Notes: generated by a model not told the origin, from the letters alone. A stretch of DNA of 64,000 bases from an uncultured Methanosarcinales archaeon (GCA_964344285.1 CAYFMM010000004.1:43347-107346); one strand, 5' to 3'. Counted from the first letter of the stretch, positions 9,354 through 47,192 are shown. A program made the numbers and translations.

Positions 9354-9574
9354 AATAAAACACCTCGTATTGTGTATTAAGAGAACTTTGCATAATTCAA
9401 TCATTTTACTTGCAAAGTCCTAAAGAGACTTTGAAATAGTCGTAATTTTGCTTTTGAAAAGATTCTGGTCTTGTCAAATTACTCTTTTTCAAAGTTCTCT
9501 TAACAAAAATAGAAATTCTCTTTTTATAAATTCATCGTAACTAAAAAATGCTTTAGGGACTTTTATCCTCATCT

Positions 9575-18635: not shown

Positions 18636-21274
18636 AATTTCAACACCTTTTCATTTTTGTAGTACTCGTTGCGTTACTGACAAGCACGGTTGATGCAAGA
18701 GTTCTTTTAAACAGTGGAGATCCGACATGGTCAGATGGGTCTACAGACTTAACAATTGATATAACACAATCTGCTACAGTTAATGTAAATGATATCTCTA
18801 CAACATTTCCTAATGCAAATGATGTTGCCTTTACTGTGGAATTATACGAGCTTGATGCCAATGGGAATCTAATTCCGGTTGTCTTAATGCCTCGGCCTTT
18901 AAACCAAGAAATTGTTCCCGTTCCACAAGGGAGTTATTTAGATTATTCTTTTGATATCGATCCCGTTCACTTTGGAAATCAAGCAGGAGATTACAGAGTA
19001 GACATCCAAATTGAAGAAGGAAGGCCTGACCAAAATATTCAATCACAAGATGCAGTAGCACAGCTAACCTTACGTGTTACAGACACTCCTGTAAACCAGC
19101 CTCCAGTAATCACACACGTATGGCAACTTGGGCAACAACCGACAACAACATATGATGTTGTGGAGGGAGAAACTTTAGAATTTTATGTGGCATTTTCTGA
19201 TCCAGAAAATGATCCTTTAACTTTTACAGGAACTGGACTTCCAAGTGGAGTAACAATTAACAACGTACCTAATCCTTTGGTACGTCTGATTGAGTGGACT
19301 CCTACTACATCACAAATTGGAACTCATCAATTAGATTTTATGGTAAGTGATGGTAATGGGAATTTTGACTCTGAAATCGTTACAGTAAATGTACAACAAA
19401 ATACAGTTCCAACAATCACTGTACCTCAAGGAATTATTTTTGTCTCAGAAGGAGAAACATACACCACACAATTAAATCCGATGGATGGGAATGCAGGACA
19501 AACTCTACATGTACAGGGAAGACAACCGGGAAGATTCCCCGGTCTAACTTTAGTACGTAATGCATTTCTTGGAAGATTTGGTCTAAACCCAACTATTCAA
19601 ACTCTCCCAAGTGGAGCAACCCTAGATGCAACAACTGGACAATTTAGTTGGACAATTCCTTATACTAAAGTAATTCATCCTAACTTAAACAGGCCTGAAG
19701 CAATTCAATTTAGAGTTTGTGACTCATTAAACGTATGCTCAGCGTGGCAAGAAGCAAGTTTTAACATTGCAGATACAAATAGAAACGTAGCAATCACATC
19801 AACTGCTCCAACACAAGCAACTGAGCTACAACAATATACTTATCAAATGGTTGCACAAGATCCAGATACTGAAGACGTATTATCATACACAATTCAAGCA
19901 CCTGTTCCAAATGGAATGGTAATTAATGCAAATGGTCTTTTAACTTGGACGCCTGCAATCGATGCAGTTGAAACATCTCCTATAATTGGACAACCGGGTG
20001 TATACCCAGTAACTGTTATTGTGGAAGATGGCTTTGGTAGCTCTCGTCAAGAATCATGGGACATTACCGTGCAAGATTTAGGTAATCAGAATATTGCGCC
20101 AAACTTTACACTAAATTCTGTGACAGTAACAGAAGGCCAAACAGCAATATTAGTTCCACAAAATGTTGTAGATGTTAATGGAGATACAGTAACATTCTCA
20201 CTAGGTACAACAAATCTACCGGCCACTGCTGTAACTACATTTGATTCTGTAACCGGACGATTAACATGGGGAAACACAGTAGTTGGAACATACAATGTAG
20301 AAATCATTGGGGATGATGGTAATGGTGGAGTCACACCAGTAACTACAACAATTACAGTAAACCCTATTCAAGGTGGAAACAGTGCACCTGTAATCACATT
20401 TAATCCTGTAAACACTAACATTAACGTTGTAGCAGGAACATCAGTTGAATTTGATGTAATGGTAGCAGATAGAGACTTTGATGTAGTTAATCTACGTTTA
20501 TCTAGTATCACGCCTTTACCTGCAGGAGCAGTATTCCAAGAACCAACTCCGCGAGTAGGGTTTGTGCAAAGCAGATTTAGCTGGACACCTACAGCAACAG
20601 ATGTTTCTACCTCTCCAAGAGAATTTTTGTTCCTTTCAACAGATGGACAAACAGCTACTCAAGCAAGAGTATTTGTGACAGTAACACCGTCACCTAACCA
20701 ACCGCCTGTTATTACAACAGTTCCAGTAACTACTGGGAGAGTTGGGCTAGACTACGAATACAATGTGGATGCATTTGATCCAGAAGGAGATGTACTGCGC
20801 TACAGTCTACAATTAGCAGCAGATACAACTATGGAAATTAACCAACAAGGTGTAATCTCATGGACGCCTGATGCAGTTGGTTCCTATCCGGTTGTTGTAG
20901 CGGTTACAGATGGTATTAACACAGTAACGCAAGCATACACAATCGTTGTAGCACAAGGAAGAAGATCCTTAGAAATTGCCTCAGCAAAAATCTTGCCAGA
21001 AGTAGTTTCTCCTGGAGATTACGTTTCTATCAACGTTCGTGTAGATAATGAAGGTGGCGTAGATGTAAAAGACTTACAAGTTAAAGCTACTTGGTATGAA
21101 TACGGCCTAAGAAGAACCAGTGGCGAATTCGACCTTGACCATGGTGATGAGAAAACTGAAAACTTTGGTTTTCTTGTTCCATACGAAACACAACCGGGCA
21201 TTTACGACCTAAAGATTTGGGTTGGAAATGACTACTTCCACGACACAGCGTACCGTCAAGTGGTAGTGCGATAG
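18632..21274 (+). CDS. secreted protein with repeated Ig-like/cadherin-like domains
   Basis: Signal peptide MKFQHLFIFVVLVALLTSTVDA. Repeated about 100-aa modules are marked by 'NQPPVITHV', 'SAPVITFNPV' and 'NQPPVITTVPV' and by D/N-rich loops. ATGA start/stop overlap with the upstream gene. Confidence 0.6.
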   Translation: MKFQHLFIFVVLVALLTSTVDARVLLNSGDPTWSDGSTDLTIDITQSATVNVNDISTTFPNANDVAFTVELYELDANGNLIPVVLMPRPLNQEIVPVPQGSYLDYSFDIDPVHFGNQAGDYRVDIQIEEGRPDQNIQSQDAVAQLTLRVTDTPVNQPPVITHVWQLGQQPTTTYDVVEGETLEFYVAFSDPENDPLTFTGTGLPSGVTINNVPNPLVRLIEWTPTTSQIGTHQLDFMVSDGNGNFDSEIVTVNVQQNTVPTITVPQGIIFVSEGETYTTQLNPMDGNAGQTLHVQGRQPGRFPGLTLVRNAFLGRFGLNPTIQTLPSGATLDATTGQFSWTIPYTKVIHPNLNRPEAIQFRVCDSLNVCSAWQEASFNIADTNRNVAITSTAPTQATELQQYTYQMVAQDPDTEDVLSYTIQAPVPNGMVINANGLLTWTPAIDAVETSPIIGQPGVYPVTVIVEDGFGSSRQESWDITVQDLGNQNIAPNFTLNSVTVTEGQTAILVPQNVVDVNGDTVTFSLGTTNLPATAVTTFDSVTGRLTWGNTVVGTYNVEIIGDDGNGGVTPVTTTITVNPIQGGNSAPVITFNPVNTNINVVAGTSVEFDVMVADRDFDVVNLRLSSITPLPAGAVFQEPTPRVGFVQSRFSWTPTATDVSTSPREFLFLSTDGQTATQARVFVTVTPSPNQPPVITTVPVTTGRVGLDYEYNVDAFDPEGDVLRYSLQLAADTTMEINQQGVISWTPDAVGSYPVVVAVTDGINTVTQAYTIVVAQGRRSLEIASAKILPEVVSPGDYVSINVRVDNEGGVDVKDLQVKATWYEYGLRRTSGEFDLDHGDEKTENFGFLVPYETQPGIYDLKIWVGNDYFHDTAYRQVVVR

Positions 21275-29848: not shown

Positions 29849-29894
29849 TTTTTATTCACGATGCGCTTTTTATATAAGCTTAATCTAGAAAAAA

Positions 29895-29987
29895 GCCCCT
29901 GGAGGGATTTGAACCCTCGGTCTTTCGCTTATTGCCCGTTATTTATCATAACTCGAGGCGAACGCTCTACCGCTAAGCTACAGAGGC
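29895..29987 (-). tRNA. intron-containing tRNA (anticodon CAU, CGU or CGA depending on the splice junction)
   Basis: Acceptor GCCUCUG/CAGGGGC with discriminator U. D-arm GCUU-AGCGGUA-GAGC. Anticodon stem UUCGC/GCGAA interrupted by about 21-22 nt. Variable loop AGACC. T-arm GAGGG-UUCAAAU-CCCUC. No encoded CCA. Confidence 0.8.
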
Positions 29988-30476: not shown

Positions 30477-31886
30477 TTGTATGACACTTTCCAATTTGAG
30501 GTGAGAAAAGTGTTAGACTACAAAAATGATCCTTTACTGTTGGATAAGAAAACATTCAACGACCTAATTGGAGAAAAGAATGAAAACATTTTATTTCTCG
30601 ATAAAGAGTCTAAAATATTAAATCTTTTTTCTGCTTTTGTAAAAAAAAGTGATTTTATTAAAGATCATAAACTTAATCAACCATTACAAAAGACTGTTTA
30701 TGTCAAGGTAAGTAAAGAACTAATTAGGATTTTGAGAAATCGATGCAACAAAACAAACGATATTCAAAAGTTAATTGAAACTTATACCAAACGAAGAACT
30801 AACTGCAGAGACGCTGTTAACAGATGGTTTGTGTCAGGTATTTTTCCCTTCATTCTCCTTAGGATTTTATCTAAAAATAATACTGAATTTTCAGGTTGGA
30901 TTTCTGAAATAAGATATTTTACAGATTTTCTTGGTAAATCTAAACTCTATTCTCCGAAGACTTTGTCTGAATTGTTAAGTCATAAGCTTGTTTACTTTGT
31001 TGGGTGTTCAGTAGGAGATGGACATATTGATAAAAACGGTAAAAGGTGGGTATTGGTTGATGGAAGCTCTGATCCAAAAAGATTAATTCTTTCAGGAGAA
31101 TTTGTATCAAATTTAAGTAATCTGTTGAGTGATTATATTGATGCATTTAAGATTGTAAAACACAAAACGAAATATGAGTTAAAAGTGAATAATAAATTAT
31201 TTTGTAGGTTTCTAAATTTCTTTTTTGGGCTTCCTTATGGGTCAAAGAAAGAGAAAATATTGAGGGTTCCATTAATCCTAAAATATTCTGGTTCAAACTT
31301 AGAAAAATACTTTTGGAGGGGATGTTTCGATACTGATGGGAGTGCAGTTCGCTCCATTGGTTTTTGTTCTTCTGATAAGAACTTAATTAGTCAGTGTGAT
31401 GATTACCTTAAATCATTGGGAATAAAGGTAAATTTGGGTAAGAAAAACATTAGAATTCCAGTTCCGAGTCTTAAAGAATGGACTTCTATTGGCTTTGCTC
31501 ATCCTAGAAAACAAATAGAATTCTTAACGACACTTAAGAAAGGAGCGAAATTTAAATTACTAAAAATAAAGGAAAAAGACAATGTGCCTTATGCGTTACG
31601 TAGAATTCATAGATTATTACAAGTTGATAGGAACGGATATAGGGTGAGGATTAATTCGTCTGCTTTGAAAGAACAGGAAATACCTGTTCAAAACGTCAAT
31701 GATATCATGAAAAAACTGTTTAACTGTGAGTTTAGACAAGCATCAAATAATCTTTATTACTTTAAATCTAAAAAAGTATATAGCTATTTACGGAGTATTT
31801 TTATATATGAACCTGCTTGGCAAGCAATAAATGATGATGAAGAGGAGCAATTCCTCTGTAATTGGAATGATGTGTGGAGAAAATGA
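30477..31886 (+). CDS. LAGLIDADG-domain protein with about 170-aa N-terminal extension
   Basis: Two LAGLIDADG motifs, 'LVYFVGCSVGDGHI' and 'FWRGCFDTDGSA'. The stop overlaps the ABCE1 start (ATGA). Confidence 0.65.
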   Translation: MYDTFQFEVRKVLDYKNDPLLLDKKTFNDLIGEKNENILFLDKESKILNLFSAFVKKSDFIKDHKLNQPLQKTVYVKVSKELIRILRNRCNKTNDIQKLIETYTKRRTNCRDAVNRWFVSGIFPFILLRILSKNNTEFSGWISEIRYFTDFLGKSKLYSPKTLSELLSHKLVYFVGCSVGDGHIDKNGKRWVLVDGSSDPKRLILSGEFVSNLSNLLSDYIDAFKIVKHKTKYELKVNNKLFCRFLNFFFGLPYGSKKEKILRVPLILKYSGSNLEKYFWRGCFDTDGSAVRSIGFCSSDKNLISQCDDYLKSLGIKVNLGKKNIRIPVPSLKEWTSIGFAHPRKQIEFLTTLKKGAKFKLLKIKEKDNVPYALRRIHRLLQVDRNGYRVRINSSALKEQEIPVQNVNDIMKKLFNCEFRQASNNLYYFKSKKVYSYLRSIFIYEPAWQAINDDEEEQFLCNWNDVWRK

Positions 31887-36023: not shown

Positions 36024-36536
36024 TTAATGTACTAAAACAATCCCTTCAACAAGTCTTTCGTTCTCTCCAGAGTATCTTGGATTGCCGCGATCTCCGTTAA
36101 GTTCAAATTCATCGCTGTCATGTAGCTCTCGAAAGTCTCGCTCAGCTCCTCGTAATCTTTCTCCGTCTTCACGTTCACCATAAGACGGTATGCTACTTGA
36201 GAAAAAGAACTGGCCTCTCTCATTAAATCTATGTATTGCACTTGCTCCAGGTGGCAGATAAAAATCAACTCCTGCATTAGGGATTACAACAGTGTATGCT
36301 ACATTGTCTGTATTCACCCACTCTACACTGTCACCAGCTAGAATCTCAACAGATGTAGGCATTATTCTAAAATCATTAAATACCATTTGGTACATGCCAT
36401 TTGACAAGCTTGCTTCTTCCATCATTTCATCTTCCACTTCCATGGTCTTTGAAACTTCAGGAGCACAACCTACCACAAAAACAGCCATCACCAAAACTAA
36501 TACTAAAATTACATTTCTCATGGTCAAATCCTCCAT
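36024..36536 (-). CDS. cupredoxin-like (amicyanin/halocyanin-like) lipoprotein
   Basis: Lipobox 'VFVVGCAP'. 'VEILAGDSVEWVNTDNVAYTVV' resembles the first strands of the cupredoxin fold. The canonical His/Cys/His/Met copper ligands are not all evident. Confidence 0.5.
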   Translation of the reverse strand: MEDLTMRNVILVLVLVMAVFVVGCAPEVSKTMEVEDEMMEEASLSNGMYQMVFNDFRIMPTSVEILAGDSVEWVNTDNVAYTVVIPNAGVDFYLPPGASAIHRFNERGQFFFSSSIPSYGEREDGERLRGAERDFRELHDSDEFELNGDRGNPRYSGENERLVEGIVLVH

Positions 36537-36609: not shown

Positions 36610-37392
36610 TTAAAATCCAAACAATTTCTTCCAATCATCTCTATATCTCTTGTAAAAGACCCAAGCTGCAACAAAAACCATGGCCAAACTAAACCACTGT
36701 CCTAGACTTAAATTCAAAAAGAGTGAATTTTCACGATAAAAATCAACGATTACTCTACCAAGTCCCTCCCAAAACACAAAGTTCCAAAAAATAAATCCAG
36801 GAGTAAACTCCTTGTGTAACTGCAAAAAAAACAACCAGCCAAAGACAATTGATCTTTTAACAGCTCCATAAATTTGAGAAGGATGACGACACACATCTCC
36901 TGCTCTAGCATCTGCATTTACAAAATTAACACACCAACTTCCATCCCATACTCTGCCCCAAAGCTCACCGTTAATAAAGTTAGCAACCCTACCAAGCATT
37001 AGTGCAAAAATAGCAGGCACACTTAAAACATCAGCAACTTTCCAAAAATTAACTTTCTTACGTTTACAATAATACCATGCTCCAACAACACTCCCAACAA
37101 AACCGCCATGAAAACTCATTCCTCCGTTCCATACTTCAAAAATTCGCAAAGGATTGCCAAAATAATATGCAGGTTCCCAAAAGAACAAAAACAAACGTGC
37201 TCCAACAAGCACCCCTATAATCACATAAAATAACAAGTCCCATACTTGATCCTTACTAAGACCTACTCGTGCCCTATACTTTTGCAACCACCAAATTGCA
37301 AGCAAAAACCCAAGGACATATACTAAACCATACCAATGGATTGCAATTGGCCCTACATTAATTATTACTGGGTCAAGATTGTGTATGTACAT
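36610..37392 (-). CDS. lgt: prolipoprotein diacylglyceryl transferase (Lgt) homologue
   Basis: 'IHWYGLVYVLGF', 'GRVANFINGELWG' and 'RHPSQIYGA' match the Lgt signature motifs. 7-TM protein. Confidence 0.8.
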   Translation of the reverse strand: MYIHNLDPVIINVGPIAIHWYGLVYVLGFLLAIWWLQKYRARVGLSKDQVWDLLFYVIIGVLVGARLFLFFWEPAYYFGNPLRIFEVWNGGMSFHGGFVGSVVGAWYYCKRKKVNFWKVADVLSVPAIFALMLGRVANFINGELWGRVWDGSWCVNFVNADARAGDVCRHPSQIYGAVKRSIVFGWLFFLQLHKEFTPGFIFWNFVFWEGLGRVIVDFYRENSLFLNLSLGQWFSLAMVFVAAWVFYKRYRDDWKKLFGF

Positions 37393-37495
37393 ATAATTAG
37401 AACAAGACTCTTTGCATATAAAGATTTCTTTTTATAAACCAACAGTTTTATATACTAAGTATACTAAAGTCTACTTAAGTTAACTTAAATCTACT

Positions 37496-37840
37496 TTGGA
37501 CTTCCAAAGTATACGTCAGTATACCATGAGCAAAAAAGAGGCAAATCTAACCTGTACTACTAAAATTTCTAAACTAAATCTAGTTAGGATTCAAAAGCTC
37601 AAAAGCTCAGGTTATGAACCAAATGACTATATTTTACAACAAGCTTTACAACTCTTAGAAAAACATAACAAGCCTCTTGGATTTGTCTCAACAAAACAAA
37701 AAATAACTTCTTCTACCAAAATTTCTGCAAAAACTCTCTCTCAAATTCAAAAATTAAAACCATCTGGATATGAACCCAATGACCTAATCATTCACAACGC
37801 GCTTTCTTTACTTGAAAAACAAAGAGGTAAGAAAAAATGA
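37496..37840 (+). CDS. small protein with internal tandem about 40-aa repeat (KLKxSGYEPNDxIxxALxLLEK x2)
   Basis: The repeats are 'KISKLNLVRIQKLKSSGYEPNDYILQQALQLLEK' and 'KISAKTLSQIQKLKPSGYEPNDLIIHNALSLLEK'. The stop overlaps the start of the giant gene (ATGA). Confidence 0.45.
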   Translation: MDFQSIRQYTMSKKEANLTCTTKISKLNLVRIQKLKSSGYEPNDYILQQALQLLEKHNKPLGFVSTKQKITSSTKISAKTLSQIQKLKPSGYEPNDLIIHNALSLLEKQRGKKK

Positions 37841-40800
37841 AACGAAACACCTCTGGATTATTTAATAGGCCTAAAAAATTAGCAATAGCATTTATTCTAT
37901 TTGTACTTCTCTTATTTACATTCTTTAATTTAGAACAGCCAGATAACAACGCAAAAGAAATAATTGAGCTAAAAACAGCAACAATTCTTGACACAGGTGG
38001 AAAAGAAGTTCATGATTACTCAAAAGAACTCCTGCAAAAAGATAATTCTTGGATTACATTTTATGCAAATCAAACACTTCAAATAGAATTTACAAAAGAA
38101 CTAGACAAAACTAAAGATATCAAATTTTATACAAAAAATAATCTTTTGCCTAATGCAACTTTAGAACTTTATGATCCTGATACAAACAACCTAATTACAA
38201 CCTTGCCGATAACAGCTAAAGAAAAATATCATAAGTTATTCTTACAAGATCTTACAAAAAATCAATCTACATTTAATGTAAAATTAAATTCTTTAAATCC
38301 AGATGACTTTATTGAAATTGATCACATTATTGACCCCTCAATTAGTGCGTGTGGAACACTTACAGATAATACAGAACCTAATATTTTAACACAAGATGTA
38401 ACAGACACAGACACATGTTTTGAATTAAGTGCACATCATATTATTCTTGATTGTCAAGGTTACAACATTACCTATGGTACAACTTCAGCAACACAACAAT
38501 ATGGGGTAAATACCTTAGGCTGGGATAATTTTACTGCTATAAACTGTGAGATCCATAATGGGGGTACGGGCCAACAAAACCATGGGATTCAAATTGACAC
38601 AGGGTCCATAGGTTCAAGAGTAATTAATTCAACCATTACAGTTACGGGATCATCTTCAAGGGCAATTAATATTCTTGGAAGTAACGATTCACAGATTATT
38701 AACTCTTCTTTGTATAACACAGGATCTTTTGGTGTAAGTGTCTACTTAACAAGCTCTTTAAACAACACTATTTTTAATTCAAGCTTATACTCTAGAAGCG
38801 CGTCAGGTCAAGCAATTTATTTAAGTGCATCTGACAATAACTTTCTTTTAAATAGTACTTTAGTAACAACATCTACGGTCAATCCAATCCAACTCTTAAA
38901 CAGTGATTATAATACGATTGATAGGGTTAATGTTTCCTCTGGTGGTTACGGTTTAACCATCTCTTCAGCTTATTATAATAACATCACTCGCTCTAGAATT
39001 ACCTCGTTTTATTCAACAATTTTTGCTAATGCTGATGGTGATTTTAATCTGTTTGAAAATAATACTCTAATCTCAACTGGAACAAATCAATTTTATTCTT
39101 CGGTAAGTTTATCGTCAGCTGATAATAATATTTTTTATAACAACCTTATGAACCAGACAAGAACTTCTGGGGGCCCTGTAGTGTACTTAGATAACAACGC
39201 TGATAATAACACATTTGAAAAAAATATACTTGATATGGCAAGGACATCTTTTACAGCAGATGGGTATAGTTCAGCTATATTTGGTAATAGAATAAGTGGG
39301 GTAAACGTCACTCATAATATTTTTTTAAGCGATACTGACCAACAAAGTTTCTATTTTGGAGGGATTGGAGCTTCATTTTATGATCATTATTTTTTCAATA
39401 ATACACATAACAATGACCCCATTTATTACATTGGTCCAAAAGATCATCGAACTGTCTTTAATCATACCACTGTAAGGCTACTTTGGATTGCAAAGGATAA
39501 TTTTACTGTAAATAATGTTTCTGTAAATCACACTGATGGAATGCGTGTAGCTTATGCAAATAACGTAGTGATCAATGATTCCTTTTTTGTTCCTCAAAAA
39601 AGAGCTGGCCTTGCAGCACTACATCTTCGTGGAGCAGTAAACACAACAGTTAACAACACTAGGCTTACAACTTCTCAAACCACTTCTGAGGGAATTTATC
39701 TTGAAGATACGTTTAATAACACTATTTATAATGTTACTATTCAAACCTCAGGATCTACTGGGAGGGGAATTTATTTTGACGATGCAAATAACAACACAAT
39801 CTCAAACTCAAGAATTACTACTACTTCCACTACCGCAGATGGGTTAGTTATTTTTAATGGAGATGGCAATTTAATTCAATATATCAACATTTCAACGGGC
39901 TCTGCTGATGGGGTTGAACTAACTACTGCAACAAGTAATAATGTCTCTTATTGTAGGGTAAGTTCCTCTAACGCAGCGTATAATACAAATAGTAATTCAA
40001 ATCAAAATAATTATTTTTCACATAATTATTTAGAATCCTCTGGCTCAAATTATAATGCTGTTTCTTTATCAGCGGCTGATTTTAACACTCTTCATGCAAA
40101 TGTAATTAATCAGAGTTCAACATCTGGAAATAATCCAGTTCTTTTGATTAACACTGCACAAAATAATACATTCACATACAATAAAATATACGGTGCTCGA
40201 AATACATTTTCTGAGACAGCGGGTTCTGGAGTTAGGATTTCTGGTTCTCCCTATAACAATTTCTCTCATAACATTATTAACACAACTCTGAATTTAGGAA
40301 GAGAAAACTTAGGCCTTTATGTAGTTGCAGCTTTTGATACACATCAGCATCATTATTTTTTCAATAACACACATAACAATGATCCGATCTATTATTTTGG
40401 ACCTCAAGATTCAAGCTCTTCATTCTCACACTCAAACCCCAAACAGCTCTATGTTGCTAAAGATGGGTTTACATTAAAAAATGTCACATTGAATCAAGTA
40501 GATGGAATTCGAGTTTTATTTGCTGATGATATTTCAATTCAGAGCTCTTTAGTTAATATCACAAATCAGACTAATATTGAGGCAATTTATTTAGATAATG
40601 CAAATAATGTAACAATTCAAAATACCACTACACTAACTAACAAGGGAGGAGCGTTTAGTGTTTATTTTGATACTACAGAAAATAGTACTATTCGAAATTC
40701 AAATTTTGAATCAAAAAGCGCAGGTTCACTGTATTTTGTATCATCAGAAAGTAATCAAGTCTTAAACTCTACAATTTATTCCTTTGGAGCCTCAGTCTAT

Positions 40801-43800
40801 TTTTCCAATGCTCATAAAAATAATGTTTTATTCTCAAACATTACAAACATTGGCTCATTTGGGATTCAAACAATTTCTCCTTCAAACAATAACACTTTTG
40901 CGTATAACCGAATTATTAGCTCTGGCTCAGCAATAAGCTTGAATGAAGGTGGTAAATCACTCACTAATGTCTCTTATAACTATTTAGAAGGAAATAGCTC
41001 TGTTTCAGATACACTTGCAATAAATGCACCAGATAACGTTACTATTGCCTATAACATTATTAATAATTCTGGGGGTGGTCCAGCAGTAGCAGAAATTTTT
41101 AACTCTGATAATATTACATTTATTTACAATAATCTTTCTTCTTCAAGGGCAACATATATCTCAACTGGGATGCTTTATTTATCCTCTTCAAAGAATGGAT
41201 ATTTTGCCCATAACAGGTTAATTGGAGAAACTCAAACTAAACTAACTATTGCTTTTAATGCAGAAAATAACAGCTTTAACAACAACTACTTTGGTATATC
41301 AAATGGCTCATCCAATGCACGATCAATAGAAGCAGCAAGTGGAGGTAATAATTATTCTACGCAACTATTTACAAATAACATCTTTGTAGATTTTGGAATT
41401 GATGTAGATGGATTTAACTTTACGCTTTTGAACTCTACATTTAGGTCCCTTGACAACACAGTAGATGTTTTCCCTGGATATTTGAATTTTAATGGATCTA
41501 TGGGGTATGAAATCAATGAAGATAACCTCTACCTCAAAAATAACGTAAGTTCCTTTGGAACAGAAAAAACAGATTTTATTTTAGATTTCAATAAAACCAT
41601 GAATGTTTCTTTTTACGGCCAAGATTGTTTAGGGTATAATATTTATCACAACAATTCGTTCATTAATGATTATACTACTGCCCTTACTACAAATATTGTA
41701 GCAACACAAGCTGATGCAGGCGGAGGATCTTGTGGCAACAATGTCTGTTCAAACATTCAATGTAATGCTGGGACTCTCTCCTTTACTGTACCATTTTGGA
41801 GTGCATTTGCAATTCAAAGCATTGGTTTGGTAGATGGAGCAGCGCCAGCAGTAACATTCCTAAACCCAGTTAATAATTCAAATTTCTCAACACAGATTCA
41901 GGCTTTTAATGCATCTGTAATTGATGAAACTGCGCTAGATAGTGTTATCTTTATGTTTCCAAACAACCAAACCCCATTTAACAAAACTGCAGTAAATAAC
42001 TCTGGTAATTGGAATACAAATGTTGACATGAACACATTAACCGAAGGGTTACATATGAGTTTTGTCTTTGCAAATGATACTTCTAATAACGTAAACCAAG
42101 TAGAAAATGTATCATTCTATGTAGATAGGACCCCTCCAATTATAAACATCTTAAACCCTGCAATTAATACATCAAATTCAACCGTAGGAATTCGCTTTAA
42201 TGTAACTGACTTACATCGCTTCCTAAATTGTTCACTCTACATCAACAACACTTTAAACACTACCAATACATTCACACCAAATGGCACAAATGTATATCTT
42301 GTATCGCAAGCCCTTAACGACGCGTATTACAACGCAACTGTGACTTGTATTGACCCATCTGGTAATTTGGCAAGTAATTCTTCTATTACCATCTTAGTAG
42401 ATACACTTGTTCCAGCAGTCACCCTTACTAATCCTACTAACAGTTCAAACTTTAGTTCTGGTTTACAAGATGTCAACGCAACTATTTTTGAAGCAAACCC
42501 TAAGACAATCTTATTTAGGTTAGACAATAGCACTGGAAGAGATTTTAATCTTTCTCTAAACAACATCTCTGGCAATTGGAATAACAACCTAAACATCTCA
42601 GCACTTGTAGAAGGAACGCACTCTGCGTATATTTATGCTTTAGACCCAGCAGGAAACTTAAATGACACAGAAAACATAAATTTCATTGTAGATAGAACTC
42701 CGCCTGTTGTAAATAATCAAAATGTATCATACCTTACAGCAGACACAACTCCGACTCTTTGGGTAAATTTCACTGACACACTTTCTGCAGTAGCCAACTG
42801 TAGTCTCTTTATGGATGGTGCTATACAAGACTATACTGTAATCCCGCCCGATACCAACACGCCTCTCACACCAACAACAGCTTTAACTGAAGGAGCATAT
42901 CTTACAAACTTTACTTGTGTAGACTACTCAAACAATTCGGCAACATCATCAACAATAACTGTAACTATAGACTTATTTCCTCTTTTTGTAAATATCATTA
43001 GTCCTGCAAATAACTCTAATCTCTCAACGGAAGTGCAGTCTTTTAATGCTAGTATTCAAGAGGCCAACCCTGACACAATTATTTTTGTTTATGATAATGC
43101 TACGGGAGTTGACTTTAACAAAACTCCCACAAACCGTTCAGGTAATTGGAATGTAAGTCTTAACATTTCGACACTTACACAAGGAAGACATTTGTTTAGA
43201 GTTTTTGCAAATGATTCTGCAGGAAACACAGACTATGCTCAAAATATCTCCTTTACTGTAGACCGAGACGCACCAAATGTGACTCTATTAAACACTTCTT
43301 TGACTACAAGTTCCCCTCTTCCTTCAGTCTGGATAAACACAACTGATAACTTTTCTATTGTGACAAACTGTTCTCTTTTTATTGCAGGAACCCTACATGA
43401 TACTTCAACAGTTATTAACACAACCCCGACAATGCTTACAGCCTCAACGCCTTTAGGAGATGGGAATTATCTAACAAATGTAACTTGTACTGATTACTCT
43501 GGAAATCAAGGAAACTCTACTACGATTACTCTAACAGTAAACCTAGCTCCTCTTACTGTCGTTATTACAAACCCTGCAAACAATTCAAACCTCAGTTCGG
43601 GTAACCAAGCTTTTAATGCCTCTGTACTTGATACAAATGTTGACACGGCCATTTTCCAATTTACCAATGCAACTGGAAATAATTTTAACATCACTGCAAC
43701 AAATGTTTCTGGCAATTGGAATACATTACTAAATGTAGACTCTTTTGTTCAAGGTCAACATCAAATGCGAGTCTTTGCAAATGATACCTTAGCAAATACC

Positions 43801-46119
43801 AATACTAATTCCTTCATAAATTTCATTGTAGATCGAGATGCACCAAATGTAACTTTGCTAAATACTTCTTTTAGCACAACAGACACACAACCAAATATTT
43901 GGGTTAATGTAATTGATAATTTTTCAGCAGTTACATCTTGTGATTTAGATCTGGCAGGAACGACATATAGCACTACAACTGTTATAAATAACACGAACAC
44001 CTCACTTCCCGTAAACACAACTCTTGCTGCAGGCATCTATCCTGTAAATGTGAGCTGTACAGATTATTCTGGTAATCAAGGAAATGCAACTGGGATTAAC
44101 GTTACTATTGCTGCTGTTTCAACACCTGCTCCTACAGCAAGTAGTGGTGGTGGAGGTTCTAGTTCTTCAGGTGGTGGAGGCGGAACTATATTTGAATGTA
44201 GAACAAATGCAGACTGTCCTGTTGGAAAATACTGTGTAAATCATCAATGTCTCAAAATCTTTGATCTTAAAATAGTGCATGCTGACTCACCAATTGAACC
44301 AGGAGACCAATTAGATTTCAGTTATTTTATTAAAGGAATTGCTGCAATTGAAGGGGACGTAACTCTTGACTTCTGGTTAGAAGACGTACAAGGAAACAAG
44401 ATCACCTCTGGAAGAGACATCATTTTTGTTGGAACGTTTGAACAAAAAACGGAGCAAGGACACTTAGCACTTCCTTCCTCTACTCCTCTTGGACAACACC
44501 GTTTTGCAATCACTCTTTACTTTGATGGTTACGAAATCACCGCTCATAGGGACATAGAAGTAGTGCGTCAAGCTCCGTTACATATTGACATTATTACACA
44601 AAGAGAGCAAAATCTTACTGCAAACAATGCATGGCAATTAACAACTACTTTACAAAGTAATAAGGATAAAATCTCTTCACTAGATGTTAAAAGACAGCTA
44701 ACCAAACATAACTCTTTAGCGTGGTTTACAGAGTCACCTGTATTACTCAATAAAACAGCAACTATTCAAGATACAATTCCAGGTCTAACAAGAGGCGAAT
44801 ATACTCTTGAGGTCCTTGCCTCAGATAATGGAGAAGTAGTTGGCCAACACAAAGAATTAGTCAAAATCTCTGGACCTTTACCAACTTCACTTCTTCTCTT
44901 AGCACTCTTAGTGCTTGCTCTATTACTACTGCTCGTTTACATCTTGTACTACATATGGAAACATAAAGACAAAGACCTTGCAGCGTTACTCAAAAGAATT
45001 CATGCCCTGCAACATAAAATTCACAAATTACATCTTAAGGACCTTCCTCGAGAACAAGCTACGCGCCTAATTAGAATGGCACACAATACAAGTGATTCCT
45101 TAGCCATGCTTGCAGCACAAGCCAAACAATTACACAGGAAACAAACAGCAAAAAAACTAAACAAAGAAGAATTTCACCAACAACTTGCAAACCTTGGAGA
45201 AAGAATAGATCCTCTTGCAGATGTAGTAAAAAAATTAGTACTCTTAGATACACAAGGGCATCAAGCTCTTGCAAGAGAAAAACAATTACAAAAAGAACAA
45301 AAGAAAAACATCTCTAAATTAGAGCAAGATGATGAACACTTTTCAGAACCAAAACCAGTTCATGTTGCACATGGTGCAAGAACGATCTTGAATGTTTCTA
45401 AGTCAGAAATTCAAGAGAAATCAAAAGCAAAAAAACAACTCTTGCGTAAAATAATCACTCAAGTAAAAGAACCTATTGCAACCGAGCCTTCTTTAGAGCT
45501 CCCTTCCTTCAAAAAAGAACCTCTTGCTGTAAAAGAAAAAGCATTCAATCCAGAAAAAGTTAAACAAGAAGTGACAAACTTCACAGAAAAAATAGAACAA
45601 ATCTCTAAAAAAGATATTTCTGTAATCTCCGATCATGATATTACTGTACTACTTCAAGAGCTCAAACAACTTCAGCTTAGGTTACACAACTTCAAAACAC
45701 TTACAGGTAGTGGTTATGTTATTTTCCCAGGTCAATCTAAAATCCTAGAAAAACTCAAGAAATGTCACAGACTAATTGAACAAAAATTAGTAGAAAAAAG
45801 AATTTACAACCTTGTGACTGGAAAAGAAGATCAACTACGAAAAATCAAAAAAACAAAAGATGTTGCAAAGCTTCCATACAAACAGGCCCTCAAAAAGCAA
45901 GCAGAAAAACTTCGCCATGAAATAGAACTTGCAAAACAAAAGATGGCACAACAAGATACGCAGATCAAAAGCAATGTTATCTCTGCTCTTCCTTCATCAA
46001 CAAAAACAAGTGGAAAAAAAGTATCTTTACGTAAGAGACTAAAAAAGCTAAATCAAAGACAAGACATTCCTTTAACAGAAGTTGAGCTCATCGAGCAACA
46101 TTTAGCAGAACTGGAATAA
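37837..46119 (+). CDS. giant (2760 aa) cell-surface adhesin-like protein: beta-helix repeats, Ig-like repeats, Cys-knot, TM anchor, K-rich cytoplasmic coiled-coil tail
   Basis: N-terminal signal/TM, then about 1300 aa of N/S/T-rich parallel beta-helix-like repeats saturated with NxS/T sequons. At least five about 150-aa modules follow ('VDRTPPIINILNP', 'VDRTPPVVNNQNV', 'VDRDAPNVTLLNTS' x2). Next come a Gly/Ser linker, a CRTNADCPVGKYCVNHQC domain, the TM 'LLLLALLVLALLLLLVYILYYIW' and about 400 aa of K/E/Q-rich coiled coil. Confidence 0.7.
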   Translation: MKRNTSGLFNRPKKLAIAFILFVLLLFTFFNLEQPDNNAKEIIELKTATILDTGGKEVHDYSKELLQKDNSWITFYANQTLQIEFTKELDKTKDIKFYTKNNLLPNATLELYDPDTNNLITTLPITAKEKYHKLFLQDLTKNQSTFNVKLNSLNPDDFIEIDHIIDPSISACGTLTDNTEPNILTQDVTDTDTCFELSAHHIILDCQGYNITYGTTSATQQYGVNTLGWDNFTAINCEIHNGGTGQQNHGIQIDTGSIGSRVINSTITVTGSSSRAINILGSNDSQIINSSLYNTGSFGVSVYLTSSLNNTIFNSSLYSRSASGQAIYLSASDNNFLLNSTLVTTSTVNPIQLLNSDYNTIDRVNVSSGGYGLTISSAYYNNITRSRITSFYSTIFANADGDFNLFENNTLISTGTNQFYSSVSLSSADNNIFYNNLMNQTRTSGGPVVYLDNNADNNTFEKNILDMARTSFTADGYSSAIFGNRISGVNVTHNIFLSDTDQQSFYFGGIGASFYDHYFFNNTHNNDPIYYIGPKDHRTVFNHTTVRLLWIAKDNFTVNNVSVNHTDGMRVAYANNVVINDSFFVPQKRAGLAALHLRGAVNTTVNNTRLTTSQTTSEGIYLEDTFNNTIYNVTIQTSGSTGRGIYFDDANNNTISNSRITTTSTTADGLVIFNGDGNLIQYINISTGSADGVELTTATSNNVSYCRVSSSNAAYNTNSNSNQNNYFSHNYLESSGSNYNAVSLSAADFNTLHANVINQSSTSGNNPVLLINTAQNNTFTYNKIYGARNTFSETAGSGVRISGSPYNNFSHNIINTTLNLGRENLGLYVVAAFDTHQHHYFFNNTHNNDPIYYFGPQDSSSSFSHSNPKQLYVAKDGFTLKNVTLNQVDGIRVLFADDISIQSSLVNITNQTNIEAIYLDNANNVTIQNTTTLTNKGGAFSVYFDTTENSTIRNSNFESKSAGSLYFVSSESNQVLNSTIYSFGASVYFSNAHKNNVLFSNITNIGSFGIQTISPSNNNTFAYNRIISSGSAISLNEGGKSLTNVSYNYLEGNSSVSDTLAINAPDNVTIAYNIINNSGGGPAVAEIFNSDNITFIYNNLSSSRATYISTGMLYLSSSKNGYFAHNRLIGETQTKLTIAFNAENNSFNNNYFGISNGSSNARSIEAASGGNNYSTQLFTNNIFVDFGIDVDGFNFTLLNSTFRSLDNTVDVFPGYLNFNGSMGYEINEDNLYLKNNVSSFGTEKTDFILDFNKTMNVSFYGQDCLGYNIYHNNSFINDYTTALTTNIVATQADAGGGSCGNNVCSNIQCNAGTLSFTVPFWSAFAIQSIGLVDGAAPAVTFLNPVNNSNFSTQIQAFNASVIDETALDSVIFMFPNNQTPFNKTAVNNSGNWNTNVDMNTLTEGLHMSFVFANDTSNNVNQVENVSFYVDRTPPIINILNPAINTSNSTVGIRFNVTDLHRFLNCSLYINNTLNTTNTFTPNGTNVYLVSQALNDAYYNATVTCIDPSGNLASNSSITILVDTLVPAVTLTNPTNSSNFSSGLQDVNATIFEANPKTILFRLDNSTGRDFNLSLNNISGNWNNNLNISALVEGTHSAYIYALDPAGNLNDTENINFIVDRTPPVVNNQNVSYLTADTTPTLWVNFTDTLSAVANCSLFMDGAIQDYTVIPPDTNTPLTPTTALTEGAYLTNFTCVDYSNNSATSSTITVTIDLFPLFVNIISPANNSNLSTEVQSFNASIQEANPDTIIFVYDNATGVDFNKTPTNRSGNWNVSLNISTLTQGRHLFRVFANDSAGNTDYAQNISFTVDRDAPNVTLLNTSLTTSSPLPSVWINTTDNFSIVTNCSLFIAGTLHDTSTVINTTPTMLTASTPLGDGNYLTNVTCTDYSGNQGNSTTITLTVNLAPLTVVITNPANNSNLSSGNQAFNASVLDTNVDTAIFQFTNATGNNFNITATNVSGNWNTLLNVDSFVQGQHQMRVFANDTLANTNTNSFINFIVDRDAPNVTLLNTSFSTTDTQPNIWVNVIDNFSAVTSCDLDLAGTTYSTTTVINNTNTSLPVNTTLAAGIYPVNVSCTDYSGNQGNATGINVTIAAVSTPAPTASSGGGGSSSSGGGGGTIFECRTNADCPVGKYCVNHQCLKIFDLKIVHADSPIEPGDQLDFSYFIKGIAAIEGDVTLDFWLEDVQGNKITSGRDIIFVGTFEQKTEQGHLALPSSTPLGQHRFAITLYFDGYEITAHRDIEVVRQAPLHIDIITQREQNLTANNAWQLTTTLQSNKDKISSLDVKRQLTKHNSLAWFTESPVLLNKTATIQDTIPGLTRGEYTLEVLASDNGEVVGQHKELVKISGPLPTSLLLLALLVLALLLLLVYILYYIWKHKDKDLAALLKRIHALQHKIHKLHLKDLPREQATRLIRMAHNTSDSLAMLAAQAKQLHRKQTAKKLNKEEFHQQLANLGERIDPLADVVKKLVLLDTQGHQALAREKQLQKEQKKNISKLEQDDEHFSEPKPVHVAHGARTILNVSKSEIQEKSKAKKQLLRKIITQVKEPIATEPSLELPSFKKEPLAVKEKAFNPEKVKQEVTNFTEKIEQISKKDISVISDHDITVLLQELKQLQLRLHNFKTLTGSGYVIFPGQSKILEKLKKCHRLIEQKLVEKRIYNLVTGKEDQLRKIKKTKDVAKLPYKQALKKQAEKLRHEIELAKQKMAQQDTQIKSNVISALPSSTKTSGKKVSLRKRLKKLNQRQDIPLTEVELIEQHLAELE

Positions 46120-46931: not shown

Positions 46932-47192
46932 ATGGAAAAAGACAAGGTATATTCAAAAGAACTTCTGGGCAAAACAGTAGTATCCAAATCAGGAAAAAAA
47001 TTCGGAGATGTAGGAGATTTAATCTTTGAAGCAGGCTCTGGAGAACTAATCCACTTATTATTACGAAATCCAACTTCTTACACAGATAAAATGGAGTTAG
47101 AAAAAACCAAAGAAGGTCAAATCTTAATCCCATTCTCAGCTGTAATTGCATCTGGCGACTTTATTGTAGTTGCAGAAGAAGATATTGTTTGA
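46932..47192 (+). CDS. PRC-barrel domain protein
   Basis: 'LLGKTVVSKSGKKFGDVGDLIFEAGSGELIHLLL' is the typical archaeal stand-alone PRC-barrel signature. 86 aa. Confidence 0.65.
   Translation: MEKDKVYSKELLGKTVVSKSGKKFGDVGDLIFEAGSGELIHLLLRNPTSYTDKMELEKTKEGQILIPFSAVIASGDFIVVAEEDIV

Follow-up and report, generated by a model that had tools for sequence, protein, structure and literature searches.

The giant open reading frame (ORF) in the 64-kb stretch of archaeal DNA analyzed here (the window) encodes a real protein of 2760 residues, which is a membrane-anchored surface fibre and is probably heavily glycosylated. We put at about 0.6 the probability that it is a type I surface glycoprotein of a Woesearchaeota/Nanoarchaeia-type DPANN archaeon that forms a long adhesion fibre, and a glycan-binding adhesion fibre is its most likely function. 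The protein may serve host attachment, and the cell that makes it may be an episymbiont. It also joins a wider group of giant surface proteins, previously undescribed, which have one anchor module in common and often carry long, basic intracellular tails.

Results

A single ORF of 2760 codons at 37837–46119, as in the original prediction, was borne out by ORF calling and translation (Table 1). Several contigs from NCBI, ENA, and Logan assemblies carry the identical protein, which is a singleton at 90% identity clustering.

Table 1. Features of the giant gene and its surroundings, in window coordinates
Feature	Position	Strand	Basis
Small upstream ORF, 104 aa from ATG	37526..37840	+	Gene called at this position in public assembly
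Giant gene, complete ORF	37837..46119	+	2760 aa + stop codon; identical protein in public assemblies
Signal peptide or signal-anchor helix, aa 14–33	37876..37935	+	Hydropathy >1.8 over aa 12–35; flank charges
N-terminal beta-rich domain, putative distal tip, aa 36–170	37942..38346	+	AF2, Foldseek
Three tandem right-handed beta-helix modules, NosD/pectin-lyase type	38347..41436	+	Pfam, self-similarity, AF2
Junction region between beta-helix and Ig array, aa 1201–1330	41437..41826	+	Read from sequence
Eight Big_13 Ig-like domains, four ~190-aa two-domain units	41827..44106	+	Pfam Big_13 1.1e-29, 8 stretches
Hinge, Pro/Ala/Thr then Gly/Ser-rich, aa 2091–2118	44107..44190	+	Sequence; AF2 pLDDT <50
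4-Cys knob, C-x5-C-x5-C-x4-C, aa 2119–2138	44191..44250	+	All 4 Cys invariant in alignments A1, A2
Anchor beta-sandwich domain 1, aa 2139–2243	44251..44565	+	Conserved in all relatives; AF2 pLDDT >90
Second membrane-proximal anchor domain, aa 2244–2346	44566..44874	+	Aligns with relatives P0001, P0002, P0004; absent from P0003
C-terminal TM helix, aa 2350–2375	44884..44961	+	Hydropathy up to 3.4; AF2 helix, model residues 253–278
Cytoplasmic tail (predicted), 385 aa, aa 2376–2760	44962..46116	+	Composition, AF2 secondary structure

The N terminus indeed carries the hydrophobic signal or transmembrane (TM) segment that had been predicted, preceded by a basic n-region, MKRNTSGLFNRPK (+4), but it shows no canonical A-x-A site for cleavage. 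If the helix stays uncleaved, the protein would be tethered at both ends and the picture of a distal tip fails. The putative tip domain has no Pfam or NCBIfam match; its AF2 model is all-beta and of low confidence (pLDDT 27–75), Foldseek links it weakly to lectin-type beta-sandwiches, and the lectin-like reading of this poorly modelled domain is only a lead. Searching with the 560 N-terminal residues returned three proteins at a coverage of just 41–54%, all annotated Beta_helix/NosD.

Beta-helix repeats of some 1300 aa had been expected next; the fold was confirmed (Pfam Beta_helix 1.2e-18, six stretches; NosD 3e-13), but the region is shorter, at about 1030–1090 aa. Self-comparison divides it into three diverged copies of a ~320-aa unit (27–44% identity; aa 171–514, 515–836, and 837–1200), with a conserved junction motif, YFFNNTHNNDPIYY, opening modules 2 and 3 (aa 518 and 840). 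The AF2 model reaches a pLDDT of 84–93, and its Foldseek matches, among them GH87, phage depolymerases and tailspikes, AlgE epimerases, and a fucoidan lyase, are weak, with E values from 6e-5 to 1e-2 and low TM, and do not separate binding from catalysis. Four Cys (1264, 1299, 1304, and 1309) lie in the junction region that follows, which has no family assignment; in relatives, a similar Cys segment ('...C..S.IC..I.Y...G.L.F.V..F.NY') follows the beta-helix or precedes the hinge.

The Ig-like array is genuine and belongs to Big_13; however, instead of at least five modules of about 150 aa, each opening with VDR(T/D)(P/A)P, it comprises four units (aa 1331–1519, 1520–1710, 1711–1900, and 1901–2090) with 37–59% mutual identity, and that motif occurs exactly four times (aa 1429, 1618, 1808, and 1998), at the boundary inside each unit. 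The expected abundance of N-x-S/T sequons, well over 100, is matched by 131 in the whole protein. The ectodomain holds 126, where residue shuffles give 67.2 ± 6.8 (z = 8.6), and the Ig array is the most sequon-dense region (64 vs 27 expected, z = 8.8), with sequon positions shared across all four units in five alignment columns and across three of the four in six. No sequon enrichment was seen in the other proteins of the window. Given the enrichment and conservation observed, the ectodomain is very probably densely N-glycosylated, occupancy being the predicted part. No oligosaccharyltransferase (AglB) gene was seen in the window, as far as it was scanned.

Membrane topology, predicted as one TM helix followed by a cytoplasmic tail, is upheld by several lines of evidence. 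The giant protein has two hydrophobic segments in all, with basic flanks on the predicted inside as the positive-inside rule demands, and a basic stretch, HKDKDLAALLKRIHA, directly follows the C-terminal helix. All but one of its 22 Cys lie in the ectodomain. In relatives, domains of cytoplasmic type (a PRC barrel in three cases and SET in one) are fused behind the equivalent helix. Among the 30 relatives whose tail has 100 aa or more and whose ectodomain has 300 aa or more, sequons number 3822 in the ectodomains vs 1731 expected (2.2-fold) and 28 vs 28 in the tails; since they are enriched outside and neutral in the tails, this asymmetry supports the predicted topology. The tail of the giant protein itself has 4 sequons vs 1.0 expected, tiny numbers that give a small counter-signal to a cytoplasmic location. 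The assignment of the giant protein as a type I (bitopic) surface protein with a tail predicted to be cytoplasmic is supported.

Between the Ig array and the membrane lies the anchor. The poly-Gly/Ser hinge is present as proposed (aa ~2103–2116) and is kept as a Gly-rich linker in relatives, in which G15, G16, G17, and G19 are invariant (alignment A1). The "Cys-knot" stalk survives as a small Cys motif, CRTNADCPVGKYCVNHQC (aa 2121–2138), but because it has just four Cys, it is not a cystine knot. This 4-Cys knob is modelled at a pLDDT of ~90 and occurs in one to three copies in relatives; Pfam Dumpy_DPY scores 16.7–18.4 bits on it, under the 27-bit cut-off, which a relative in locus L001 passes (28.4 bits). 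Anchor domain 1, recognizable by the motifs LFDxKI, DSPI, FxYFIKG, and FE(E/Q)KTE, has no Pfam family and no sequence-level match to Pfam CARDB. Its model resembles CARDB of PF1109 (3idu and 2kl6; TM 0.63–0.66), complement MG domains, and transglutaminase barrels in Foldseek, and we are confident that the predicted fold is a CARDB-like beta-sandwich. The second anchor domain is found in a subset of relatives alone and is modelled with low confidence as partly beta.

Judged by sequence comparison, the hinge, Cys knob, beta-sandwich, and TM helix together are a conserved module that is absent from Pfam. Searches yielded 26 protein matches, 7 genome loci, and 39 metagenome loci, and the carriers are about 70 Woesearchaeota/Nanoarchaeia-type proteins. 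Many are giant (up to >4100 aa), with basic tails of up to 734 aa and ectodomains that vary from LamG arrays to Big_13, an ALK-type glycine-rich domain, or a beta-helix.

The K/E/Q-rich tail (K 16%, L 13.5%, Q 8.6%, E 8.6%; net charge +30) exists much as described and is mostly helical, but calling it a 400-aa coiled coil was an overstatement: AF2 gives about ten helices split by disordered or Pro-containing linkers, and heptad periodicity is confined to short patches and does not extend into a single long coiled coil. Nor is such a tail unusual within its own lineage, where many proteins with the anchor module have tails of 337–734 aa. An exhaustive phmmer search of 1.84e9 representative proteins found no homologue of it but itself; it contains no Pfam family, neither it nor 25 other family tails contain a known domain, and it resembles none of 33 other tails of the anchor family. 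These tails are mutually unrelated, save three subfamilies, and consist largely of K/R-rich low-complexity or repeat sequence. Any function of the tail is therefore conjecture, and the signalling role once suggested for it is speculation, because it has neither a detectable homologue nor a known signalling domain.

The genome context is that of a Woesearchaeota/Nanoarchaeia-type (DPANN) archaeon. The stop codon of the 104-aa upstream ORF overlaps the giant gene's start codon (ATGA). Part of this small ORF is duplicated in tandem, with a ribbon-helix-helix-like pattern; it matches no Pfam or NCBIfam family, and a different small tandem-duplicated ORF occupies its position in locus L002. Its product may be a co-transcribed DNA-binding protein and may be part of the giant-protein system. 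A PRC-barrel gene lies ~0.8 kb downstream of the giant gene and directly downstream in two related loci; being highly conserved, it may simply be a housekeeping gene in a conserved gene order. The syntenic ortholog in L002 has just 1136 aa and is ~31% identical, whereas neighboring genes are 56–89% identical. This divergence, together with singleton status, suggests the fast evolution typical of exposed adhesins.

Discussion

We propose that Sec-type export would place ~2300 residues outside the cell, as the signal, TM helix, and domain types suggest. The working end, at the far end, would consist of the beta-rich tip and the three tandem pectin-lyase-fold modules and, judging from fold class, would bind, or less probably cut, glycans of a partner cell, a particle, or the envelope of the cell itself. 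The eight Big_13 domains would form an extended stalk, giving the ectodomain a reach of ~60 nm by standard domain dimensions, and the flexible Gly/Ser hinge would couple this stalk to an anchor made of a disulfide-type 4-Cys knob, one or two CARDB-like beta-sandwiches, the TM helix, and the basic tail. The weakest step concerns the tail, whose most likely role would be that of a polybasic, amphipathic-helical inner anchor, fixing or clustering the fibre through contacts with anionic partners (the inner leaflet of the membrane, nucleic acid, or other tails), rather than that of a conserved signalling domain.

Other readings deserve to be weighed against an adhesion fibre. The ORF might be an artefact of assembly or annotation, with repeats collapsed or made chimeric or with two genes wrongly fused. 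Collapsed repeats are a concern that the original prediction itself raised, and short-read metagenome assemblies are prone to collapse of repeat-rich giant ORFs. However, the repeat copies are just 37–59% identical in protein, the best internal DNA match is 85% over 62 nt (at the beta-helix junction motif), and no long-period tandem array was found in the ORF; collapse is unlikely because the copies are so diverged in DNA and such an array is absent. Moreover, the identical protein comes from several contigs and sources, the overall order of parts is the same in relatives, and 385 open codons past the TM helix, in DNA of 35% GC, are not explicable by chance. An artefact is thus extremely improbable and already largely refuted. 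Surface binding might instead, as the original prediction suggested, be passed on to the cell interior, an external ligand acting through the single TM helix on a tail that recruits a specific cytoplasmic partner. The recurrence of long tails across the family, the PRC barrels (three) and SET domain (one) behind the same anchor, and the PRC-barrel gene nearby, adjoining in two related loci, speak for such a receptor, which we nevertheless hold to be quite improbable: the tail is an orphan sequence, a known domain is absent from it and from 25 others, the unrelated K/R-rich low-complexity or repeat tails argue for a generic electrostatic role, and the conserved PRC-barrel neighbor may be plain housekeeping.

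Two further alternatives, each unlikely though less so, concern the ectodomain. The protein could be a structural, S-layer-type glycoprotein that builds or anchors the cell's own surface layer rather than mediating attachment. Its type I topology with a TM helix near the C terminus, its Ig-like domains, and its dense sequons match what is described for archaeal S-layer proteins, none of which is known from Woesearchaeota, and for the S-layer candidates of Nanobdella (bioRxiv 10.1101/2023.10.27.564410). Against this, the protein stands alone in clustering at 90% identity, its positional orthologs vary more than 2-fold in length (1136 vs 2760 aa), and related genomes use the anchor module for unrelated ectodomains; three beta-helix modules and a reach of ~60 nm would also be atypical of lattice-forming subunits. 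The Nanobdella report also proposes that pectin-lyase-like proteins degrade the host wall, which bears on the other possibility, a surface-tethered polysaccharide depolymerase whose beta-helix (lyase, hydrolase, or epimerase) is presented by the Ig stalk to host envelope glycans or environmental polysaccharide. Its model does resemble GH87 alpha-1,3-glucanase, phage capsule depolymerases and tailspikes, fucoidan lyase, and mannuronan epimerases, but these matches are weak and at the level of fold alone, no solved structure is matched by sequence, and no Pfam glycoside-hydrolase or lyase family is hit. Neither of the matched families, NosD and Beta_helix, is an enzyme family, and most domains of this kind are not known to be catalytic.

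The adhesion fibre that we favor has partial counterparts in known systems. Within the anchor, the 4-Cys knob shares the two-disulfide spacing of DPY and EB modules, and some relatives exceed the Pfam thresholds or come near them, whereas the DPY score of the giant protein is below the cut-off; CARDB of Pyrococcus furiosus PF1109 (PDB 3IDU/2KL6) superposes on anchor domain 1 (TM 0.63–0.66). In neither case is there the combination with a TM helix and basic tail, which is specific to the giant protein's lineage. C-terminally anchored archaeal S-layer or stalk glycoproteins, such as SlaB of Sulfolobales, are also type I with Ig-like domains and heavy external N-glycosylation, but they make up or anchor a regular lattice, show conservation and high expression, and have short cytoplasmic tails, whereas the giant protein is hypervariable and has beta-helix modules and a tail of 385 aa. 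Bacterial fibrillar adhesins (LapA and SiiE of the RTX type; FHA/EtpA with a beta-helix) use a repetitive Ig/Big stalk, variable in repeat number between relatives, to present a distal ligand-binding region. Their construction logic is the same, but they depend on T1SS, T5SS, or sortase, unlike the Sec-type signal and C-terminal TM helix here, in an archaeal cell and with dense sequons and a cytoplasmic tail.

Among giants, the "dockerin-type" proteins of Omnitrophota combine domains for attachment with others related to carbohydrates, in ultra-small cells that depend on a host or prey (bioRxiv 10.1101/2023.11.21.568195). They too are mostly extracellular and, where complete, have a C-terminal TM helix and an intracellular region, although they are bacterial, exceed 10,000 aa, and contain dockerin/discoidin domains; no link between them and the anchor module was seen. 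Surface proteins of Nanobdella aerobiophila, for which a role at the host surface is proposed, are described as having a pectin-lyase fold, 1–8 Ig folds, and 36–52 sequons (bioRxiv 10.1101/2023.10.27.564410). They are thus, like the giant protein, DPANN surface proteins that combine a parallel beta-helix, Ig-like folds, and many sequons. Compared by description, they have 908–1320 aa and, as far as that description goes, no Cys-knob/CARDB-like anchor or long cytoplasmic tail, whereas the giant protein extends to 2760 aa with three beta-helix modules and 131 sequons.

Results

What is new in this analysis is a conserved anchor module and recurrent long basic tails across many giant relatives of one 2760-aa archaeal surface protein, neither of which is described in the literature that we searched; the same search gave nothing specific on giant adhesins of Woesearchaeota. 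The giant protein itself is encoded by the single 8.3-kb ORF of the original prediction, 2760 codons in one frame without interruption. That this ORF is an artefact is very unlikely. Assemblies from NCBI, ENA, and Logan record an identical protein on several contigs, the longest of 174.6 kb, and the order of its parts is the same in relatives. Repeat collapse during assembly was rejected, the repeats being too diverged at the DNA level (best match 85% over 62 nt), with no long-period array detected by TRF.

By the Pfam gathering cut-off, the giant protein is a Big_13 carrier (103.3 bits versus 27, E = 1.1e-29), with eight matching stretches over aa ~1330-2090, and its first half matches Beta_helix (67.7 bits, cut-off 25.9, 1.2e-18, six stretches) and NosD (50.1 bits, cut-off 23.6, 3e-13). 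Profiles and predicted fold together identify a right-handed parallel beta-helix (pectin-lyase fold): the AF2 model has regular short strands with pLDDT 84-93, and every Foldseek match to it is a beta-helix protein. The beta-helix-like repeats reported at the outset are thus borne out, and chunked self-BLAST resolves them into three diverged copies of a ~320-aa unit (27-44% identity), the junctions between which (aa 518 and 840) each carry YFFNNTHNNDPIYY. Chunked self-BLAST also divides the Ig array into four tandem ~190-aa units (37-59% identity), each holding two Big_13 domains, which accounts for the eight Pfam stretches. An array of Ig-like modules headed by VDR(T/D)(P/A)P had been predicted and the array stands, but there are four such motifs rather than at least five, with a period of 189-190 residues rather than ~150, and they lie at the inner domain boundary of the units rather than at module starts. 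The N-terminal 135-aa domain is beta-rich and poorly modelled by AF2, with a faint resemblance to lectin domains in Foldseek. Searching with the N-terminal 560 aa returned just three distant beta-helix proteins and left the tip domain unassigned, a sequence search of the whole protein against PDB chains gave no match, and NCBIfam produced nothing but sub-threshold OmpL47-type barrel matches over the Ig region. Pfam assigns no family to aa 2139-2760, where the TM segment alone gives a match, weak and below threshold.

Coordinates of features in the window, in related loci, and in the giant protein
Feature	Sequence	Position	Strand
ABC substrate-binding protein, lipobox candidate	window	4478-5599	-
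ABC substrate-binding protein, lipobox candidate	window	8241-9404	-
LAGLIDADG homing-endonuclease ORF	window	11994-12635	-
880-aa surface-type protein	window	18632-21274	+
94-nt tRNA gene	window	29894-29987	-
LAGLIDADG homing-endonuclease ORF	window	30477-31886	+
170-aa protein adjoining Lgt, lipobox candidate	window	36024-36536	-
Lgt	window	36610-37392	-
TTTATAAA box and phased 10-nt units	window	37425-37528
104-aa ORF	window	37526-37840	+
Giant protein	window	37837..46119	+
86-aa PRC-barrel protein	window	46932-47192	+
84-aa ORF	L002	3407-3661
ORF with anchor LFD motif	L002	3662-7072
PRC-barrel protein	L002	7201-7464
PRC-barrel protein	L003	1618-1893
Ig unit 1	giant protein	aa 1331-1519
Ig unit 2	giant protein	aa 1520-1710
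Ig unit 3	giant protein	aa 1711-1900
Ig unit 4	giant protein	aa 1901-2090
Cys motif	giant protein	aa 2121-2138
TM helix	giant protein	aa 2350-2375
Tail	giant protein	aa 2376-2760

The giant protein is predicted to be a type I bitopic membrane protein, N-out/C-in, because four independent lines agree on N-terminal export with the ectodomain outside and the tail inside. Strongly hydrophobic segments occur only at aa ~12-35 and ~2341-2376—matching the N-terminal signal/TM and single later TM helix originally proposed—and each is flanked by basic residues on its predicted inner side. Of 22 Cys, 21 are in the ectodomain. The Big_13 and beta-helix families of the ectodomain are extracytoplasmic, and PRC and SET fusions lie behind the TM helix in relatives. 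The fourth line, an asymmetry of N-glycosylation sequons across the family, is described below. The cytoplasmic placement of the tail, previously proposed, is upheld by all four. No obvious A-x-A cleavage site follows the N-terminal helix. Lipoprotein anchoring via the adjacent Lgt and a class III (pilin-type) signal were both rejected, there being no lipobox Cys near the N terminus and no K/R-G/A/S cleavage motif before the hydrophobic stretch.

The giant protein contains 131 N-x-S/T sequons, in agreement with the "well over 100" first estimated. Its predicted ectodomain (aa 36-2340) holds 126, where residue shuffles give 67.2 +/- 6.8 (z = 8.6). Sequons are most closely packed in the Ig array (64 versus 27 expected, with 53% of its Asn within sequons), and they are kept at five alignment columns in 4/4 Ig units and at six in 3/4. 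No comparable excess was found in any other ORF of the window, and an 880-aa surface-type protein with He_PIG and Big_9 Ig domains has one sequon versus 9.2 expected, so that enrichment is no general trait of the secreted proteins of this genome. Among 30 anchor-family members, ectodomains have 3822 sequons versus 1731 expected (2.2x, 5.7 per 100 aa) and tails 28 versus 28 (1.0x, 0.27 per 100 aa). Dense sequons are therefore selected throughout the family, and the counts imply that its ectodomains would carry very dense N-glycan coats. No STT3/AglB oligosaccharyltransferase gene was found among the scanned ORFs of the 64-kb window. The ~2-fold excess confined to ectodomains offers a simple, sequence-only test of topology.

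The anchor module consists of a Gly-rich hinge, one to three knobs (C-x5-C-x5/6-C-x4-C), a beta-sandwich with the motifs LFDxKI, DSPI, FxYFIKGMA, GDV, FW(L/I)E, and FEEKTE, sometimes a second domain, and then the TM helix and a basic tail. When aa 2098-2760 were used as a query, three proteins were found, with similarity confined to ~230 residues before the TM helix. An A2 profile of the anchor region matched 24 proteins, together with 7 loci in genomes and 39 in metagenomes, and overall the module was located in 26 proteins in addition to these loci. A four-member anchor profile gives 423.5 bits on aa 2119-2379 of the giant protein, a match by construction because the latter is one of the four sequences. 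Besides this one copy, no anchor paralog was found in the window.

Carriers range from proteins of ~170-470 aa up to giants, complete giant ORFs encoding 1710, 1928, 1945, 2380, 2921, 2942, 3120, and 3415 aa; for other carriers, sizes above 4100 aa are lower bounds, as the ORFs reach the edge of the 10-kb flanks. Their ectodomains consist of LamG/ConA-like arrays (loci L039 and L044), Big_13 (L040), an ALK-type glycine-rich domain (L006), or a beta-helix plus Big_13 (the giant protein and L002, a syntenic related locus). Since the ectodomains differ, the module is a general membrane anchor of large surface proteins in this lineage. One carrier, P0007 (374 aa, on a 753-kb contig), comes under the source label "Candidatus Paceibacterota bacterium" (CPR), and several genome loci with the module under that of "uncultured Methanosarcinales archaeon," which reflects either mislabelled bins or transfer of the module outside Woesearchaeota.

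The knob of the giant protein (C-x5-C-x5-C-x4-C) has four Cys, which allow at most two disulfides. A cystine knot has at least six Cys, with three disulfides in a threaded topology, so the "Cys-knot stalk" initially proposed has to be abandoned. Dumpy_DPY (PF21164) scores 16.7-18.4 bits on aa 2120-2138, below its 27-bit cut-off; among relatives, 5/27 match it with E values no higher than 0.01 (the best being 1.4e-5), the L001 relative reaching 28.4 bits. The beta-sandwich is modelled by AF2 with pLDDT >90 and has no Pfam model, CARDB included (no match on aa 2139-2346). Among solved structures it comes nearest to the CARDB domain of Pyrococcus PF1109 (TM 0.63-0.66) and, matching equally well, to complement MG domains and transglutaminase barrels; judging from the model, it is probably a generic Ig-like stalk domain.

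The tail (385 aa; K 16%, L 13.5%, Q 8.6%, E 8.6%) has a net charge of +30. It had been described as a 400-aa K/E/Q coiled coil; the K/E/Q richness and helicity hold, but a continuous coiled coil is not supported. AF2 predicts about ten helices of 10-56 residues, with low-confidence breaks at model positions 400-424, 447-470, and 621-632, and the heptad score beats shuffles in patches only (maximum 0.775 versus a 95th percentile of 0.726, with 5.3% of windows >0.6 versus 0.6% in shuffles). The tail is basic and helical, and probably not one 400-aa coiled coil. In an exhaustive phmmer search of 1.84e9 representatives, aa 2376-2760 matched nothing but the giant protein itself, local blastp detected no similarity to 33 other family tails, and neither Pfam on 26 tails nor NCBIfam on this one gave any family. 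A conserved signalling domain in the tail was rejected on these grounds.

Long tails recur in the family (337, 344, 440, 441, 503, 552, 556, 597, 606, 628, 662, 677, and 734 aa), with 20-40% K+R and net charges of up to +166. The tail that was flagged as unusual is thus typical among anchor-module giants; long basic tails are typical of this lineage and, as far as we can tell, undescribed, and the tail of the giant protein is a unique sequence of that general kind. Family tails fall into at least three mutually unrelated subfamilies: short ~110-aa helical tails (L002, L003, L011, L012, L014, L019, and L044), long tails with tandem repeats of RRNRRKFFHDHFGMFKTDKEK (L023, L024, L026, L027, L035, L038, and L042), and tails with amphipathic repeats (L031, L036, L037, L041, and L046). 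The L026 tail has about seven copies of ...RRNRRKFFHD(H/Y)FGMFKTDKEK... and the L036 tail has five copies of GLIVGIKEGIGNFVSGIFRVLRKVGKFFF; no Pfam family matches the tandem-repeat tails of giant carriers in these two subfamilies. Behind the TM helix, three small members (P0013, P0021, and P0023) have a PRC barrel, and P0025 (309 aa, N-terminally truncated) has a SET lysine methyltransferase domain with an NHSCDPN signature, which would mean a surface-anchor module coupled to a cytoplasmic methyltransferase domain.

The window encodes ABCE1/RLI, a class Ic Glu/Gln-tRNA synthetase, Trm1, a geranylgeranyl-reductase-type protein, and TrmB, and relatives of the anchor and neighbor genes bear the labels Candidatus Woesearchaeota, Nanoarchaeia, or Nanoarchaeota. 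Gene content and labels identify the source as a Woesearchaeota-type DPANN archaeon, an episymbiotic lifestyle being purely our inference. ARAGORN cannot assign an anticodon to the tRNA gene, which therefore probably contains an intron, and one of the two homing-endonuclease ORFs overlaps the start of the ABCE1 gene.

Synteny with L002 extends over a 149-aa lipobox protein (28% identity), Lgt (57.5%), the surface protein (~31%), the PRC-barrel protein (89%), a 177-aa protein corresponding to a 158-aa ORF of the window (80%), and GluRS (56%). The L002 positional ortholog of the giant gene encodes 1136 aa, with one beta-helix, three Ig domains, the common anchor, and a different 108-aa tail. The L002 ORF also has an XXXX run at aa ~776-779, within the LFD motif, which is a gap in the public record. 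At 90% identity the giant protein is a singleton and the neighboring PRC-barrel protein belongs to a 24-member cluster. The giant gene thus changes rapidly and expands through internal duplication, a pattern typical of exposed surface proteins. The PRC-barrel proteins of the window, L002, and L003 are 84-89% identical; the gene follows that of the surface protein immediately in L002 and L003 and after ~0.8 kb in the window. In archaea, PRC-barrel proteins take part in FtsZ/SepF cell division (bioRxiv 10.1101/2023.03.28.534520), and the adjacency may be a functional link or mere gene order.

Upstream of the giant gene, the TTTATAAA box leads into about eight 10-nt units in phase (TATAC/TCTAC...), after which comes a ribbon-helix-helix-like ORF with an internal tandem duplication, whose stop overlaps the ATG of the giant gene. 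In L002 this position is taken by an unrelated ORF, which likewise carries a tandem duplication and has an AbrB/SpoVT-like pattern. These elements may represent a small, dedicated regulator with a putative operator. The adjoining Lgt is a full-length, bacterial-type prolipoprotein diacylglyceryl transferase on an archaeal contig (Pfam LGT 2.6e-66; NCBIfam TIGR00544 180 bits versus a 119-bit cut-off). According to a 2025 paper, no archaeal Lgt homologues have been identified so far (PMC12462473). The three lipobox candidates of the window have the N-terminal motifs VFVVGC, LIIVGC, and LVVSC.

Discussion

To our knowledge, little has been established about the attachment of DPANN archaea to hosts or particles, for which their giant surface proteins are the leading candidates. 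The original prediction was largely right in what it observed—although wrong in several details—and its interpretation is supported in part. The best-supported reading makes the giant protein a long adhesion fibre coated with glycans. Its working end would be formed by the tip domain and three glycan-binding beta-helix modules, and behind it would come a stalk of eight Ig domains, then the flexible hinge and the anchor module. It is a larger, more elaborate form of a kind already known, the DPANN beta-helix/Ig surface glycoprotein. An S-layer component is unlikely given the hypervariability of the protein. We also attach a low probability to a tethered polysaccharide depolymerase: the beta-helix model resembles GH87, phage depolymerases, tailspikes, alginate epimerases, and fucoidan lyase in Foldseek, but weakly and at the level of the fold, and the absence of any Pfam GH or PL family and of any PDB sequence match leaves it with no sequence-level link to an enzyme family or solved structure.

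The least probable of these alternatives is a signalling receptor, in which the tail would relay surface binding to the interior. Because family tails are non-homologous, alike in composition, and often repetitive, we conjecture instead that the tail serves in a generic way, as a polybasic inner anchor or to cluster the protein. A bolder possibility, to which we also give a low probability, is that the anchor module defines an undescribed class of giant bitopic proteins in Woesearchaeota/Nanoarchaeia-type archaea, with long polybasic cytoplasmic tails (+30 to +166, up to 734 aa) that couple the outer fibre to the cell interior. Candidate inner partners would be the nucleoid or ribosomes, the inner leaflet, or FtsZ/SepF-associated PRC-barrel division proteins; some tails consist of tandem repeats, others are replaced by a PRC barrel or SET domain, and that of the giant protein would be unique. 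If true, an ultra-small archaeon would have an integrin-like link between its outside and inside.

Taken alone, the giant protein is one more beta-helix and Ig surface glycoprotein. The wider interest lies in a conserved, unannotated membrane-anchor module common to dozens of giant proteins with unrelated ectodomains, and in long, highly basic cytoplasmic tails as a recurrent, unexplained trait of this family. The anchor profile, the tail families, and targets for glycoproteomics and cryo-ET provide handles on the surfaces of uncultivated Woesearchaeota. As an adhesion fibre, the giant protein runs parallel in its construction to the fibrillar adhesins of bacteria.
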